Assembly: GCF_016026235.1 (NCBI RefSeq)
Contig: NZ_CP065613.1
From: Escherichia coli
Lineage (GTDB): Bacteria > Pseudomonadota > Gammaproteobacteria > Enterobacterales > Enterobacteriaceae
Length of the DNA stretch: 64,000 bases
Reading direction: 5' to 3' (one strand)
Positions 4,434 through 64,000 of this stretch are shown here, piece by piece (the stretch's first letter is position 1; every line of letters starts with the position of its first letter). Made by a program: the position numbers and the translations under genes. The notes below the pieces were generated by a model, which searched no databases, had not been told where the DNA came from, and saw only the letters and a program-made list of their open reading frames with translations.

Positions 4434-4517
4434 GTAGGCCTGATAAGACGCTATCAGCGTCGCATCAGGCATCCTGCTCAAATGCCGGATGCGGCGTAAA
4501 CGCCTTATCCTGCCTAC
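4434..4517. repeat. BIME: two inverted REP elements
   Basis: gtaggcctgataagacgc...cgcatcaggc and gccggatgcggcgtaaacgccttatcc...ctac. Confidence 0.85.
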
Positions 4518-9497: not shown

Positions 9498-9595
9498 GCC
9501 TGATGCGCTTCGCTTATCAGGCCTACGTGAATTCTGCAATTTATTGAATTTACAAACTTTTGTAGGCCGGATAAGGCGTTCGCGCCTCATCCGGC
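9498..9595. repeat. BIME: two inverted REP elements
   Basis: gcctgatgcgcttcgcttatcaggcctac ... gtaggccggataaggcgttcgcgcctcatccggc. Confidence 0.85.
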
Positions 9596-24216: not shown

Positions 24217-24747
24217 TTACGCTTTGTAGCTTAATTCTTCGATGGTGTGGAAATGGTTGGTATAGATGCAAATGTCGCCTGCAATATCCAACGCCTTTTC
24301 AGCAATTTCACGGGCGCTAAGTTCAGTGTTTTCTAACAGCGCGCGCGCCGCAGCCTGGGCGTAAGGGCCGCCGGAGCCGATAGCAATAAGATCGTTTTCT
24401 GGCTGCACCACGTCACCGTTACCGGTGATGATAAGCGATGCAGTTTCATCCGCGACTGCCAGCAGTGCTTCAAGTTTGCGCAGCATGCGATCGGTACGCC
24501 AGTCTTTTGCCAGCTCAACGGCGGCTTTAACCAGATGGCCCTGATGCATTTCCAGTTTACGTTCAAACAGTTCGAACAGCGTAAAAGCATCCGCAGTACC
24601 GCCCGCAAAGCCCGCGATGACTTTGTCGTTGTACAGACGGCGGACCTTTTTCACGTTGCCTTTCATTACGGTATTGCCCAACGTGGCCTGACCATCACCA
24701 GCGATGACCACATGGCCGTTACGGCGTACGCTTACTATAGTTGTCAC
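24217..24747 (-). CDS. hslV: ATP-dependent protease subunit HslV
   Basis: 176-aa ORF ([31 protein letters not shown]...). Confidence 0.97.
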
Positions 24748-24816
24748 GAGCTGACCCCTTGGTTACGAATACAGAGTACAAACCCCGTACAAAAGTACGG
24801 GGCATAATGCAATTAT

Positions 24817-27071: not shown

Positions 27072-29429
<2,358 letters not shown>

Positions 29430-29433
29430 TTAG

Positions 29434-29685
<252 letters not shown>

Positions 29686-30411: not shown

Positions 30412-30508
30412 GCCGGATGCGGCGTGAACGCCTTATCCGGCCTACAAGTTCGTGCAAATTCAATAAATTGCAATATGACGTAGGCCTGATAAGCGTAGCG
30501 CATCAGGC
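30412..30508. repeat. BIME: two inverted REP elements with AT-rich spacer
   Basis: gccggatgcggcgtgaacgccttatccggcctac ... gtaggcctgataagcgtagcgcatcaggc. Confidence 0.85.
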
Positions 30509-35004: not shown

Positions 35005-35036
35005 ACATCTGGACGTCTAAACGGATAGATGTGCAC
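35005..35036 (+). promoter_or_regulatory. Tandem met boxes (MetJ operator) upstream of metF
   Basis: acatctgg acgtctaa acggatag atgtgcac: four tandem 8-bp met-box-like repeats. Confidence 0.7.
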
Positions 35037-35072
35037 AACACAACATATAACTACAAGCGATTGATGAGGTAA

Positions 35073-35966
<894 letters not shown>

Positions 35967-36179: not shown

Positions 36180-38474
<2,295 letters not shown>

Positions 38475-46454: not shown

Positions 46455-48306
46455 ATGACGAATCGTATCTCTCGCCTCAAAACTGCACTGTTTGCCAATA
46501 CCCGTGAAATCTCGCTGGAGCGGGCGCTGCTTTATACCGCCAGCCATCGGCAAACCGAAGGCGAACCGGTGATATTGCGCCGGGCGAAAGCAACAGCGTA
46601 TATCCTTGAACATGTTGAAATTTCGATTCGTGATGAAGAACTGATTGCCGGTAACCGCACCGTAAAACCGCGCGCCGGGATTATGTCGCCGGAAATGGAC
46701 CCTTACTGGCTGCTGAAAGAGCTGGATCAATTCCCGACGCGTCCGCAGGACCGCTTTGCTATCAGCGAAGAAGATAAACGTATCTACCGTGAAGAGTTGT
46801 TCCCGTACTGGGAAAAACGTTCGATGAAAGATTTCATCAACGGGCAGATGACAGATGAAGTAAAAGCCGCGACCAACACGCAGATTTTCAGCATCAACCA
46901 GACGGATAAAGGCCAGGGGCACATTATTATTGATTACCCACGCCTGTTGAATCACGGTCTGGGTGAGCTGGTGGCACAGATGCAGCAACATTGTCAGCAA
47001 CAGCCGGAGAATCACTTTTATCAGGCCGCGTTGTTACTGCTGGAAGCCTCGCAGAAACACATTTTGCGTTACGCCGAACTGGCGGAAACGATGGCGGCAA
47101 ACTGCACAGATGCCCAGCGTCGCGAAGAACTGCTGACTATTGCGGAGATCTCTCGCCATAACGCCGAACATAAGCCGCAGACGTTCTGGCAGGCGTGCCA
47201 GTTATTCTGGTACATGAACATCATTCTGCAATACGAATCCAACGCCAGTTCGCTATCGCTGGGGCGCTTCGACCAGTATATGTTGCCGTTCTATCAGGCA
47301 TCATTAACCCAGGGCGAAGATCCGGCGTTCCTGAAAGAACTGCTCGAATCTTTATGGGTGAAATGCAACGACATCGTGCTGTTGCGCTCCACCAGCAGCG
47401 CGCGTTATTTCGCAGGTTTCCCGACCGGCTATACCGCACTGCTCGGCGGGTTAACCGAGAACGGACGTAGCGCGGTGAACGTGCTTTCGTTCCTTTGCCT
47501 TGATTATCAGCGATTGTCTGGAAAAAGGTCGCGATATTACCGATGGCGGCGCGCGTTATAACTTCTCCGGCGTACAGGGGATCGGTATCGCCAACCTGAG
47601 CGATTCTCTCCATGCGTTGAAAGGGATGGTTTTTGAGCAACAGCGTTTAAGTTTTGACGAATTGCTGTCGGTATTAAAAGCCAACTTTGCAACGCCAGAA
47701 GGCGAAAAAGTCCGTGCTCGCTTAATTAACCGCTTCGAGAAATACGGTAACGATATCGACGAGGTGGATAACATCAGCGCCGAACTGTTACGCCACTACT
47801 GCAAAGAAGTGGAAAAATACCAGAACCCGCGCGGCGGTTACTTCACGCCGGGATCGTATACCGTTTCTGCTCACGTCCCGTTGGGATCGGTGGTTGGCGC
47901 GACGCCAGACGGTCGTTTTGCCGGGGAACAACTGGCAGACGGCGGCTTGTCACCTATGCTGGGCCAGGACGCACAAGGGCCAACAGCGGTACTGAAGTCA
48001 GTCAGTAAGCTCGATAATACGCTGCTGTCTAACGGTACGTTGCTGAACGTGAAATTCACTCCGGCGACCCTGGAAGGTGAAGCGGGATTACGCAAACTGG
48101 CCGACTTCTTACGGGCGTTTACCCAGCTTAAGTTGCAGCATATTCAGTTTAACGTGGTGAACGCCGACACGTTGCGGGAAGCGCAACAGCGCCCACAAGA
48201 TTATGCCGGGCTGGTGGTGCGCGTTGCCGGATACAGCGCCTTCTTTGTCGAACTGTCGAAGGAGATCCAGGATGACATCATCCGCCGGACAGCGCATCAG
48301 CTGTAA
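46455..48306 (+). pseudogene. pflD: pflD (glycyl-radical formate acetyltransferase 2 homologue) disrupted by an internal deletion and frameshift
   Basis: N-terminal 350 aa read in frame 0 to ...NVLSFLCLD, then switch to frame +1 at about 47505 (ISDCLEKGRD...) through the glycyl-radical motif RVAGYSAFF to the normal stop; total 1852 bp versus about 2298 bp expected for the 765-aa protein. Confidence 0.75.
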
Positions 48307-58618: not shown

Positions 58619-59992
58619 ATGGCACTTTGGGGCGGGCGTTTTACCCAGGCAGCAGATCAACGGTTCAAACAATTCAACGACTCACTGCGCTTTGATTACC
58701 GTCTGGCGGAGCAGGATATTGTTGGCTCTGTGGCCTGGTCCAAAGCCCTGGTCACGGTAGGCGTGTTAACCGCAGAAGAGCAGGCGCAACTGGAAGAGGC
58801 GCTGAACGTGCTGCTGGAAGATGTTCGCGCCAGGCCACAACAAATCCTTGAAAGCGACGCCGAAGATATCCATAGCTGGGTGGAAGGCAAACTGATCGAC
58901 AAAGTGGGCCAGTTAGGCAAAAAGCTGCATACCGGGCGTAGTCGTAACGATCAGGTAGCGACTGACCTGAAACTGTGGTGCAAAGATACCGTTAGCGAGT
59001 TACTGACGGCTAACCGACAGCTGCAATCGGCGCTGGTGGAAACCGCACAAAACAATCAGGACGCGGTCATGCCAGGTTACACTCACCTGCAACGCGCCCA
59101 GCCGGTGACGTTCGCGCACTGGTGCCTGGCCTATGTTGAGATGCTGGCGCGTGATGAAAGCCGTTTGCAGGATGCGCTTAAGCGTCTGGATGTCAGCCCA
59201 TTAGGCTGTGGCGCGCTGGCGGGAACGGCCTATGAAATCGACCGTGAACAGTTAGCGGGCTGGCTGGGATTTGCTTCAGCAACCCGTAACAGTCTCGACA
59301 GCGTTTCTGACCGTGACCACGTGCTGGAACTGCTTTCTGCTGCCGCTATCGGCATGGTGCATCTGTCGCGTTTTGCTGAAGATCTGATTTTCTTTAACAC
59401 CGGCGAAGCGGGGTTTGTGGAGCTTTCGGACCGCGTGACTTCCGGTTCATCATTAATGCCGCAGAAGAAAAACCCGGATGCGCTGGAGCTGATTCGCGGT
59501 AAATGCGGTCGGGTGCAGGGGGCGTTAACCGGCATGATGATGACGCTGAAAGGTTTGCCGCTGGCTTACAACAAAGATATGCAGGAAGACAAAGAAGGTC
59601 TGTTCGACGCGCTCGATACCTGGCTGGACTGCCTGCATATGGCGGCGCTGGTGCTGGACGGCATTCAGGTGAAACGTCCACGTTGCCAGGAAGCGGCTCA
59701 GCAGGGTTACGCCAACGCCACCGAACTGGCGGATTACCTGGTGGCGAAAGGCGTACCGTTCCGCGAGGCGCACCATATTGTTGGTGAAGCGGTGGTGGAA
59801 GCCATTCGTCAGGGCAAACCGCTGGAAGATCTGCCACTCAGTGAGTTGCAGAAATTCAGCCCGGTGATTGGCGAAGATGTCTATCCGATTCTGTCGCTGC
59901 AATCGTGCCTCGACAAGCGTGCGGCAAAAGGCGGCGTCTCACCGCAGCAGGTGGCGCAGGCGATTGCTTTTGCAAGGGCGCGGTTGGGGTAA
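58619..59992 (+). CDS. argH: Argininosuccinate lyase
   Basis: 457-aa ORF ([33 protein letters not shown]...). Confidence 0.97.
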
Positions 59993-60015
59993 GAACATTT
60001 ATATGTACAAATTTG

Positions 60016-60041
60016 AGCCTGGCTTATCGCCGGGCTTTTTT
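60016..60041 (+). terminator. argH intrinsic terminator
   Basis: Hairpin agcctggc-ttatc-gccgggct followed by tttttt. Confidence 0.75.
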
Positions 60042-60045
60042 ATGG

Positions 60046-60163
60046 CAAAAAAAAGCGGATCCTGGAGATCCGCAAAAGTTCACGTTGGCTTTAGTTATTC
60101 GAGTTGAGAAACTCTCGAAACGGGCAGTGACTTCAAGGGTTAAAAGAGGTGCCGCTCCGTTTC
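60046..60163 (-). ncRNA. oxyS: OxyS oxidative-stress small RNA
   Basis: Minus strand reads gaaacggagcggcacctcttttaacccttgaagtcactgcccgtttcgagag..., matching oxyS as recalled; ends in hairpin gcggatc-ctgga-gatccgc plus U-tract. Confidence 0.85.
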
Positions 60164-60258
60164 TGTGAGCAATTATCAGTCAGAATGCTTGATAGGGATA
60201 ATCGTTCATTGCTATTCTACCTATCGCCATGAACTATCGTGGAGATGGAGGATGGATA
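60164..60258. promoter_or_regulatory. Divergent oxyS / oxyR promoter region with OxyR autoregulatory site
   Basis: Intergenic segment between oxyS 5' end and oxyR start; individual sites not resolved. Confidence 0.5.
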
Positions 60259-61176
60259 ATGAATATTCGTGATCTTGAGTACCTGGTGGCATTGGCTGAA
60301 CACCGCCATTTTCGGCGTGCGGCAGATTCCTGCCACGTTAGCCAGCCGACGCTTAGCGGGCAAATTCGTAAGCTGGAAGATGAGCTGGGCGTGATGTTGC
60401 TGGAGCGGACCAGCCGTAAAGTGTTGTTCACCCAGGCGGGAATGCTGCTGGTGGATCAGGCGCGTACCGTGCTGCGTGAGGTGAAAGTCCTTAAAGAGAT
60501 GGCAAGCCAGCAGGGCGAGACGATGTCCGGACCGCTGCATATTGGTTTGATTCCCACGGTTGGACCGTACCTGCTACCGCATATTATCCCGATGCTGCAC
60601 CAGACCTTTCCAAAGCTGGAAATGTATCTGCATGAAGCACAGACCCACCAGTTACTGGCGCAACTGGACAGCGGCAAACTCGATTGCGTGATCCTCGCGC
60701 TGGTGAAAGAGAGCGAAGCATTCATTGAAGTGCCGTTGTTTGATGAGCCAATGTTGCTGGCTATCTATGAAGACCACCCGTGGGCGAACCGCGAATGCGT
60801 ACCGATGGCCGATCTGGCTGGGGAAAAACTGCTGATGCTGGAAGATGGTCACTGTTTGCGCGATCAGGCAATGGGTTTCTGTTTTGAAGCCGGGGCGGAT
60901 GAAGATACACACTTCCGCGCGACCAGCCTGGAAACTCTGCGCAACATGGTGGCGGCAGGTAGCGGGATCACTTTACTGCCTGCGCTGGCTGTGCCGCCGG
61001 AGCGCAAACGCGATGGGGTTGTTTATCTGCCGTGCATTAAGCCGGAACCACGCCGCACTATTGGCCTGGTTTATCGTCCTGGCTCACCGCTGCGCAGCCG
61101 CTATGAGCAGCTGGCAGAGGCCATCCGCGCAAGAATGGATGGCCATTTCGATAAAGTGTTAAAACAGGCGGTTTAA
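60259..61176 (+). CDS. oxyR: LysR-family hydrogen peroxide sensor OxyR
   Basis: ORF track 60229..61176; start at ATG 60259 ([40 protein letters not shown]...) giving 305 aa. Confidence 0.97.
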
Positions 61177-62559
61177 ACCGTTTAACGCAGCTACCCGATA
61201 GGCTTCCGCCATCGTCGGGTAGTTAAAGGTGGTGTTGACGAAGTACTCAATAGTGTTGCCGCCACCTTTCTGTTCCATAATCGCCTGACCGATATGAATA
61301 ATCTCGGCAGCGCGCTCGCCAAAGCAGTGAATGCCCAGAATCTCTTTTGTTTCCCGATGGAACAAAATTTTCAGCGTGCCCACGTTCATGCCGACGATTT
61401 GTGCACGTGCCAGATGTTTGAACTGGGCGCGGCCCACTTCATATGGCACTTTCATCGCGGTCAGCTGCTGTTCGGTTTTGCCCACAGAGCTGATTTCCGG
61501 GATGGTGTAAATGCCTGTAGGGATATCTTCAATCAGATGCGCGGTGGCTTCGCCTTTTACCAGCGCCTGCGCGGCAATGCGCCCCTGGTCATAGGCCGCT
61601 GATGCCAGGCTCGGATAACCAATCACGTCGCCCACCGCGTAAACGTGCGGCTGTGCGGTCTGATACATGCTGTTGACCTTCAGCTGTCCGCGACTGTCAG
61701 TTTCCAGCCCAATGTTCTGTAACGCCAGCGAATCGGTATTACCGGTACGACCGTTGGCATAGAGCAGGCAGTCAGCTTTCAGTTTTTTACCCGACTTCAG
61801 ATGCATGATCACACCGTCGTCACAGCCTTCGATCTTCTCGTACTCTTCGTTGTGACGAATCACTACGCCACTGTTCCAGAAGTGATAGGAGAGAGAATCT
61901 GACATCTCTTGATCGAGAAATGCCAGCAGGCGATCGCGGGTGTTGATCAGATCCACTTTTACATCCATACCGCGGAAGATCGACGCATATTCACAGCCGA
62001 TCACTCCAGCACCATAGATAAGTACATGGCGCGGTTCGTGGTGCATGCTGAGAATTGAGTCGCTGTCGTAAATGCGTGGATGGGTGAAATCAACATCTGT
62101 TGGATGATATGGACGAGAGCCGCAGGCAATAACAAATTTTTCAGCGGTTAGTGTTTCAACGCTGCCGTCCGGGCAATCCAGCGCCAACGTATGCTCGTCA
62201 ACAAAGCGAGCGTTCCCCTGCAATATTTCACAGTGATTACGTTCGTAAAATCCCTGACGCATGCGCGTTTGTTGATTAATCACGTTATCGGCATGGTTAA
62301 GGATATCGGCAAAAGAAGAGCGGAGCAGTCGGGAATGGTCGCTGTATAGTGGGTTTTGATTGAATTCTATAATGCGGCTGACGGCGTGACGGAGAGCTTT
62401 CGACGGGATGGTGCCCCAGTGGGTGCAACCGCCGCCAACATTTTGATAACGCTCGATAACTGCGACGCGCGCACCTTGCTTAACTAGGCCCATTGCAGCG
62501 CCTTCGCCGCCGGGGCCGGAACCTATTACTATGGCATCGTAATCGTAGGAATGTGGCAT
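61159..62559 (-). CDS. sthA: Soluble pyridine nucleotide transhydrogenase
   Basis: 466-aa ORF ([24 protein letters not shown]...); 3' end overlaps oxyR convergently by 18 bp. Confidence 0.96.
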
Positions 62560-62888: not shown

Positions 62889-64000
62889 ATGATCGAACAC
62901 TATATTCGAGGGTTTGAGGAAGAACTGCGTGAGATCCGCCATCAGATCCACGAAAACCCGGAGCTGGGATTACAAGAATTTAAAACCAGTGCTTTGGTTG
63001 CGGAAAAGCTGCGTCAGTGGGGCTATGAAGTAGAGCAAGGACTGGCGACGACGGGGATAGTGGCCACGTTAAAAGTGGGCGACGGAGAGAAAAGTATTGG
63101 CCTGCGGGCGGATATGGATGCGCTGCCGATTTATGAAAATAGTGGCAAGCCCTGGGCCAGTAAACATCCTGGTTTAATGCACGCCTGCGGGCATGACGGG
63201 CATACCACCATACTGCTGGGGGCCGCGCGTTATTTTGCCGAAACCCGCCGTTTTAACGGCACGTTACGTCTTATCTTCCAGCCTGCGGAAGAGATGATTA
63301 ATGGCGGTGAGATCATGGTTAAAGAGGGGCTTTTTGATCATTTCCCCTGCGATGTCATTTTCGGCATGCATAACATGCCCGGTCTGCCGGTGGGTAAGTT
63401 TTATTTCCAGCCAGGGGCACTGATGGCGTCAATGGATCAGTTCCATATTACAGTTCGTGGTTGTGGCGGACACGGTGCGATCCCGCACAAAGCCATCGAT
63501 CCGGTGCTAGTTGCCGCACATATCACCACCGCATTACAAAGCATTGTGTCACGCAATGTCGATCCGCTGGAAGCGGCGGTAATTACCGTCGGCAGCATTG
63601 TTGCGGGTGAGGCGGCTAACGTCATTCCTGACAGTGCTGAGATGAAAATCAGCGTCCGCTCTCTTAGCCGCGATACCCGACAACTTCTTCTGACCCGTAT
63701 TCCTGCTCTGGCACAAGCCCAGGCTGCCAGCTTTGGCGCTACGGCTGAGGTTACGCATGTTAACGGTACACCAGTATTAGTAAATGACGAGGAGATGGCG
63801 CGCTTCGCCTGGCAGGTGGCGTGTAAAACGTTTGGTGAAGATCGGGCCGAGTTTGGCATCAAGCCTCTGATGGGCAGTGAAGATTTCTCTTTCATGCTGG
63901 AAGCCCAACCCAAAGGCGGTTTCCTGTTATTCGGTAATGGCGATGTCGGGGAAGGTTCCTGCATGGTGCATAACCCGGGTTACGACTTCAACGATGCAAG
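62889..64000 (+). CDS. M20D-family amidohydrolase (aminoacylase / hippurate-hydrolase-like), 3' end outside window
   Basis: ATG 62889 with aagga RBS; no stop before window end; translation MIEHYIRGFEEELREIRHQIHENPELG...MHACGHDGHTTILLGAARYF... carries the metal-binding signature typical of peptidase M20D; missed by the ORF track because it is open-ended. Confidence 0.8.
   Translation, partial: MIEHYIRGFEEELREIRHQIHENPELGLQEFKTSALVAEKLRQWGYEVEQGLATTGIVATLKVGDGEKSIGLRADMDALPIYENSGKPWASKHPGLMHACGHDGHTTILLGAARYFAETRRFNGTLRLIFQPAEEMINGGEIMVKEGLFDHFPCDVIFGMHNMPGLPVGKFYFQPGALMASMDQFHITVRGCGGHGAIPHKAIDPVLVAAHITTALQSIVSRNVDPLEAAVITVGSIVAGEAANVIPDSAEMKISVRSLSRDTRQLLLTRIPALAQAQAASFGATAEVTHVNGTPVLVNDEEMARFAWQVACKTFGEDRAEFGIKPLMGSEDFSFMLEAQPKGGFLLFGNGDVGEGSCMVHNPGYDFNDA

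Follow-up and report, generated by a model that had tools for sequence, protein, structure and literature searches.

Gene content of the locus

The window, by which we mean the whole stretch of 64,000 nucleotides of Escherichia coli DNA that was analysed, contains between argH and oxyR a run of 243 apparently non-coding bases (60016-60258) that is the main subject of this work. The features identified in and around it are the following.

58619-59992, plus strand: argH (argininosuccinate lyase), the last gene of argCBH; an open reading frame of 457 aa with its stop codon at 59990-59992
60015-60043, plus strand: argH intrinsic terminator; a 9-bp stem with a 5-nt loop (60015-60037) and a T6AT tail (T run 60036-60041, A 60042, T 60043)
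60044-60046, no strand: GGC, which separates the tails of the two terminators; read off the sequence
60047-60163, minus strand: oxyS (OxyS sRNA), with its 5′ end at G60163 and its 3′ end inside the U8 tail (60047-60054); from the Rfam match and identity to K-12
60047-60073, minus strand: OxyS stem-loop 3, which is the oxyS intrinsic terminator; stem-loop 60055-60073 (GCGGAUCUCCAGGAUCCGC) plus U8 (60047-60054)
60080-60114, minus strand: OxyS nt 50-84, comprising stem-loop 2 (nt 50-63, 60101-60114) together with the A-rich linker, which is single-stranded; published positions mapped onto the Rfam alignment
60117-60163, minus strand: OxyS stem-loop 1 (nt 1-47); from the Rfam structure and the minimum free energy (MFE) fold
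60172-60177, minus strand: probable oxyS -10 hexamer GATAAT, at positions -14 to -9; read from the sequence
60192-60237, no strand: OxyR operator, three overlapping 15-bp ATAG-n7-CTAT-like repeats (IR3 60192-60206, IR2 60201-60215, IR1 60223-60237)
60221-60248, plus strand: 12-bp hairpin predicted for the oxyR leader or the operator DNA, with the central pair G60226-C60243; at its base, the pairs involve the two leading G of the Shine-Dalgarno sequence GGAGGA (60247-60252)
60243, plus strand: private substitution, A for C, at -80 from the oxyS start and -16 from the oxyR ATG, 6 nt outside IR1
60259-61176, plus strand: oxyR (LysR-type peroxide sensor), 305 aa, divergent from oxyS
61159-62559: sthA, a convergent open reading frame identified with an NCBIfam equivalog model

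The flanking genes could be assigned with confidence. The product of argH, which is preceded by argC and argB, scored 861.7 bits with NCBIfam model NF008964 and 715.5 bits with TIGR00838, and that of oxyR scored 632.9 bits with NF008361 (cut-off 329), the alignment covering residues 1-305 of 305. The oxyR ATG lies 95 nt from the oxyS 5′ end and on the opposite strand, in agreement with the divergent arrangement given in a preliminary description of this DNA, whose right edge for the region, 60258, is indeed the base preceding that ATG. An upstream in-frame ATG at 60229, which would yield a 315-aa product, was considered as the oxyR start and rejected, given that it is not conserved (Citrobacter, Pseudocitrobacter and some E. 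coli have GCG or ACG instead); the NF008361 alignment from residue 1 at 60259 also argues against it. Were that frame the true one, the change at 60243 would be a synonymous GGC-to-GGA.

The same gene order is annotated in O157:H7, K-12 and FDAARGOS_943. The last of these is the closest genome, differing by 7 SNPs in 16.5 kb. Because all four of the coding SNPs are synonymous third-position changes, the differences appear to be natural strain divergence, and sequencing error or artificial damage was rejected as their source.

Identity of the small RNA gene

A search with the Rfam OxyS model, the check that had been proposed for this region, returned RF00035 on the minus strand at 60054-60163 with 139.5 bits (gathering score 75, E value 6.5e-30), covering model positions 1-110 of 110 with posterior probabilities maximal throughout. 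It was the strongest Rfam match in a scan of the entire 64 kb. Of the tail, the model includes a single U, the first; in the window the U8 run extends to 60047, which corresponds to the annotated 3′ end of oxyS in K-12. Over these 117 nt (60047-60163) the window is 100% identical to K-12 MG1655 b4458, its aligned counterpart at K-12 4158278-4158394 being annotated as "small regulatory RNA OxyS". The gene had previously been placed on the minus strand at 60046-60163: its identity holds, but its left edge has to be moved by one base to 60047, since 60046, one base past the U8 tail, already belongs to the GGC spacer (its C).

The likeness to K-12 OxyS (b4458; RF00035) goes beyond the RNA itself and takes in promoter, operator, terminator and the argH and oxyR neighbours, with 60047-60242 identical throughout. 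The only nearby positions at which window and K-12 differ are 60243 in the leader of oxyR (C to A) and 60008 in the spacer between argH and oxyS (T to C), plus two further bases at the argH 3′ end (59980 and 59986). A location in the oxyR-argH intergenic region is the published one for oxyS in Enterobacteriaceae (PMC8825220).

The oxyS region was present in 5,425 of the 5,426 complete E. coli genomes. Four records of the PLSDB plasmid collection (NZ_CP141089.1, NZ_OL790696.1, NZ_CP134663.1 and CP061233.1) also carry oxyS-oxyR at 97-99% identity; they are 1.0-4.9 Mb long and look like chromosomes, or pieces of chromosomes, entered as plasmids. The matches in this collection, either chromosome-sized E. 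coli records or lower-identity records from other species, are uninformative as to the mobility of oxyS.

The oxyS-oxyR control region

We scanned both strands of the 64 kb with the OxyR consensus of four ATAG elements spaced by 10-11 bp, which we took to be ATAGnTnnnAnCTAT-n7-ATAGnTnnnAnCTAT, and the best match fell at 60201-60237 (16 of the 20 specified positions). This 37-bp four-element site abuts the oxyS -35 region. The four-ATAG operator goes back to Toledano et al. 1994, as summarised in two later sources (PMC5002191, PMC3378865); the motif itself is described in PMC3378865, the ATAG-n7-CTAT repeats in PMC5002191, and a palindromic OxyR site of approximately 37 bp in the oxyS-oxyR intergenic region in PMC8825220. 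Counted from the start of oxyS, the repeat centres have been reported at -66, -44 and -35 (PMC5002191), equivalent to window positions of approximately 60229, 60207 and 60198, and our scan agrees with these within one base. Compared with the known divergent oxyR-oxyS control region, the window keeps all three inverted repeats and their spacing relative to the oxyS start. The core of the operator is invariant across Enterobacteriaceae (some 10 genera in our comparison), and the window departs from it only by its private A60243, 6 nt beyond IR1.

As for promoters, GATAAT at 60172-60177 is probably the -10 element of oxyS, judging from its sequence and position. A sigma-70 scan gave no complete minus-strand promoter, and oxyS has no good -35, a pattern that fits an activator-dependent promoter. 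On the side of oxyR the scan gave two candidates, TTATCA-18-GATAAT ending at 60202 and TTGATA-18-TATTCT ending at 60218. The OxyR footprint at oxyR presumably spans -27 to +21, a range given no evidential weight here. The control region had been described beforehand as looking intact, and for its known elements this is accurate; one base, 60243, departs from it.

A private substitution in the oxyR leader

Position 60243 is the sole difference from O157, K-12 and FDAARGOS_943 within 60016-60258. The base sits past the OxyR operator and ahead of the ribosome-binding site of oxyR, and belongs neither to any of the three OxyR repeats nor to the oxyS promoter. K-12, O157, FDAARGOS_943 and a further 36 enterobacterial species all have C at the equivalent base; in a comparison of 38 sequences from about 10 genera it is C in 38 of 38, while the neighbouring positions 60244-60246 vary. 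The exact 59-mer around A60243 occurred in none of 5,425 complete E. coli genomes, and with a 31-nt query no 28-mer seed carrying the A was matched in 5,426 complete E. coli genomes.

Such a change at an otherwise invariant base invites the reading that it alters control, either by weakening a leader hairpin that adjoins the ribosome-binding site of oxyR or by changing the edge of the OxyR footprint, so that the amount of OxyR and the oxyS response would differ from those of K-12. Besides the conservation of the C and the absence of the A allele from the complete genomes, the predicted hairpin at 60221-60248 speaks for it. A60243 breaks the central G60226-C60243 pair, which is invariant in a helix that is 94.7% paired across species, and the ViennaRNA folding energy goes from -29.1 kcal/mol with C to -23.4 kcal/mol with A, a cost of about 5.7 kcal/mol. 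Against it, the base lies outside the repeats and the oxyS promoter, as said above, and the covariation of the hairpin (one pair changed on both sides) does not rise above shuffle controls (48/500); given that the hairpin overlaps the palindromic operator at IR1, its conservation could stem from the operator instead. In addition, with two of the three start sites assumed, the Shine-Dalgarno and AUG are predicted to be almost equally accessible with either base, the predicted hairpin may be only partly transcribed, and the other SNPs relative to FDAARGOS_943 look neutral, as the coding ones attest. On balance we consider such a change of control unlikely, and a measurable effect of A60243 would be expected with the same low probability or slightly less. 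The more specific proposal, that the hairpin would be an undescribed cis-element of the oxyR leader acting on mRNA stability or translation, or 60243 an OxyR contact, either of them shifting the OxyR set-point and with it the OxyS response, is a shade more doubtful. A natural variant at an otherwise invariant base could nevertheless serve to test the role of base and hairpin in OxyR dosage.

Two convergent terminators between argH and oxyS

A two-strand scan of 59900-60400 yielded exactly two terminator-like sites, compared with 0.4 +/- 0.7 from shuffled sequences. The first, on the plus strand, has its stem at 60015-60037 (GAGCCTGGCTTATCGCCGGGCTT, then TTTTAT; 9 pairs, 6 of them G-C) and is identical in K-12 and O157. 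The argH 3′ region that contains it folds at -17.6 kcal/mol (z = -4.7), with none of 200 shuffles equally good. The second, on the minus strand, has its stem at 60073-60055 (GCGGATCTCCAGGATCCGC, then TTTTTTTT, a T8 run; 8 pairs, 5 of them G-C) and is the terminator hairpin that oxyS had been said to possess of its own. Both show the G+C-rich hairpin directly followed by a U run that characterizes intrinsic terminators.

Although the two were supposed to share an A/T tract, only the convergent and adjoining arrangement of the terminators was upheld. Between the stems, which are 17 nt apart, the plus strand reads T6-A-T (60036-60043), GGC (60044-60046) and A8 (60047-60054), i.e. the tails are separate runs with GGC between them and not one common tract. 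The argH and oxyS RNAs should therefore not overlap, and their ends should fall 3-10 nt apart.

The argH side of this arrangement is not found everywhere. Of 5,425 complete E. coli genomes, 1,871 align to the window only from about 60047 onward, where the U-tail of oxyS has its distal end. Two such genomes were inspected (strains H3 and CUVET19-1704), and in both a gene for an MFS transporter separates argH from oxyS; the junction region lies at 1161-1201 in inspected locus L003 and at 1149-1201 in L004, the junction itself corresponding to window position 60047. From there on this haplotype resembles the window, with the same oxyS, hairpin, U8/A8 tail and oxyR. The difference lies on the other side: the window has the K-12/O157-type arrangement, in which argH and its terminator abut oxyS, whereas the transporter haplotype lacks the argH terminator at this place. 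No obvious plus-strand intrinsic terminator was seen after the transporter gene in the two inspected genomes. Locus L004 also shows, at 1149-1201, a 5-nt duplication (GCGGA) at the base of the oxyS terminator. Longer argH-oxyS gaps (2.5-3.1 kb) were found in E. whittamii, Escherichia sp. E1V33, C. braakii and C. amalonaticus. Tail-to-tail argH and oxyS terminators are consequently restricted to some lineages, and in about a third of E. coli a transporter gene lies beside the oxyS tail.

One could also regard the two hairpins as a single bidirectional module that stops transcription in both directions by means of a common A/T tract. The short distance between the stems is in favour of this, as is the fact that T6AT-GGC-A8 gives each hairpin, in its wider context, an A-rich and a T-rich side. 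However, the scan called each hairpin on one strand only, and the opposite strands lack what would be needed: after the oxyS hairpin the plus strand reads AAAAGTTCACG, without a T run (opposite-strand tail AAAAGTTC), and after the argH hairpin the minus strand reads AAATTTGTAC, with three T only (opposite-strand tail AAATTTGT). By scan and by direct reading, neither hairpin combines an A run upstream with a T run downstream, as a bidirectional terminator would. The distinct tails with GGC between them point the same way, and so do the 1,871 genomes, in which the argH terminator is missing here and the oxyS hairpin with its A8/U8 tail is unchanged, which makes oxyS termination independent of the argH hairpin. 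We have accordingly rejected a single bidirectional terminator, on the one-strand calls and the direct reading, as quite improbable.

Conserved structure of the OxyS RNA

The RNA encoded in the window has the architecture of RF00035, namely a long 5′ stem-loop, a small second stem-loop, a single-stranded linker and a 3′ terminator stem-loop. Its MFE fold (-32.9 kcal/mol, z = -2.6) reproduces the three expected stem-loops. To follow these across species we collected related loci by an exact-pattern scan with the conserved OxyS linker, using one genome per species, which gave 37 loci from some 10 genera. Synteny was retained: the 35 loci whose flanks were long enough all have oxyR in divergent orientation at a distance of 81-106 nt, and in most loci argH is convergent.

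When the Rfam structure was projected on the alignment, 78.3% of the cells were standard pairs, in comparison with 32-45% when the partners were slid, and 11 pairs had changed on both sides; the covariation score was higher than in all of 500 shuffles. Stem-loop 1 had 76.5% of its cells paired over the 37 species, and 6 of its 15 pairs were changed on both sides. The helix of stem-loop 3 was paired in 95.8% of cells in 37 species, with compensatory U-A/C-G changes at two pairs. For stem-loop 2 the figure was 46.7% in what is a crude MAFFT alignment of the 37 species, probably owing to indels within its variable loop. The A-rich linker was invariant in the 37 species, in part because it had served as the search pattern.

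A decayed remnant or chance likeness, leaving no functional sRNA gene here, is practically excluded by the full-length RF00035 match (E 6.5e-30), the identity to the experimentally studied oxyS of K-12, and the synteny and covariation kept across genera; no evidence in its favour turned up, and no observation ran counter to the identification as oxyS. We conclude, with a probability of roughly 97%, that the interval 60016-60258 is the canonical enterobacterial oxyS gene with its surroundings. Its 243 bases are fully explained by an sRNA that ranks among the best studied in bacteria, an OxyR-controlled promoter and two terminators, and need not be flagged as unexplained. The sequence thus holds known biology, as had been stated from the outset: this is the textbook oxyS of K-12 with the same neighbours, and its identification is ordinary and already known.

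Proposed mechanism and relation to known systems

Carrying the published work on K-12 over to this identical sequence, a course of events can be proposed for the window strain, for which peroxide induction, Hfq dependence and the targets are likewise inferred. Under peroxide stress, a tetramer of oxidised OxyR would bind the four-ATAG operator at 60201-60237 and, from this position next to the weak -35 of oxyS, activate leftward transcription from G60163. Because the same operator overlaps the oxyR promoter, OxyR would also repress its own gene. Activation of oxyS and repression of oxyR by oxidised OxyR from a shared operator are documented (PMC5002191, PMC3378865).

The product would be an RNA of 109-117 nt consisting of the 5′ stem-loop, the small second stem-loop, the single-stranded A-rich linker and the terminator hairpin with its U8 tail. 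The argH mRNA would stop at an intrinsic terminator of its own; with both terminators convergent, tail to tail and 3 nt apart, the transcripts would remain without overlap.

Together with Hfq, OxyS would then pair with and repress the fhlA, nusG and mepS mRNAs and lower rpoS translation. The published pairing sites for mepS, nusG and fhlA, those for fhlA lying in loops of the RNA, are present in the window, the sequence being identical to that of K-12. For fhlA, repression by OxyS with Hfq takes place by a bipartite interaction (PMC10578473). For nusG, it is nt 50-84 that repress, C76 and C77 being required (PMC10798246), and these two bases are window positions 60088 and 60087. The A-rich linker is the Hfq-binding region, next to its share in the nusG-pairing nt 50-84 (PMC10798246, PMC10578473). 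Pairing with mepS uses nt 25-33 (PMC10798246), located in the loop of stem-loop 1 at window 60131-60139. The lowering of rpoS translation has been attributed to competition for Hfq (PMC6524683). Repression of nusG and mepS together is described as halting division and elongation during repair (PMC10798246, PMC5793797); OxyS mechanism and targets are covered further in PMC11572966. The expected outcome would be less peroxide production and an arrest of division while DNA is repaired.

A related arrangement exists in Serratia and Dickeya, in which a peroxiredoxin-glutaredoxin gene is divergent from oxyR and its 3′ end has been proposed as the ancestor of oxyS, the oxyS terminator descending from the intrinsic terminator of that gene (PMC8825220). 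Like oxyS in the window, the peroxiredoxin-glutaredoxin gene is divergent from oxyR and has an OxyR site upstream; the difference is that in the window the peroxidase coding sequence is gone and the sRNA alone is present.

Other observations in the window

The four-ATAG consensus had two further matches worth recording. One of 14/20 at 36198-36234, 60-96 nt ahead of the ATG of katG (about 36294), is presumably the known katG OxyR site, in which case the window holds two OxyR-regulon promoters. Another of 15/20 lies at 35025-35061, just upstream of metF (ATG at 35076). Between metF and katG, BLAST showed a single-base deletion at about 36145 relative to FDAARGOS_943, some 150 nt upstream of katG.

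Near the end of the window, genes for an M20 aminoacylase and a citrate-proton symporter lie between sthA and fabR in the FDAARGOS_943 and O157 matches (window 62889-64000 onward; locus L005 28890-31415). In K-12 we take sthA to be directly beside fabR, and the segment may be another lineage-specific insertion.

A larger change affects pflD (formate C-acetyltransferase, 765 aa; open reading frame 46455-47561). Relative to FDAARGOS_943 the window lacks 446 nt at 47503/47504, and its reading frame is shifted and stops at 368 aa. A 100-nt query over this junction found, among the matches listed, complete E. coli genomes in two pieces spanning 546 nt. The deletion accordingly looks private or rare, as the junction query matched the listed genomes only in this split form.

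Apart from OxyS, Rfam matches above the gathering score sit at 4437-4514, 9519-9560, 24745-24802, 29414-29466 and 30446-30487; they comprise naRNA4 (78.6 bits), ES036/CssrF twice (44.6 and 39.6 bits), a ClpQY promoter element (63.6 bits) and an L31 ribosomal-protein leader (60.1 bits).
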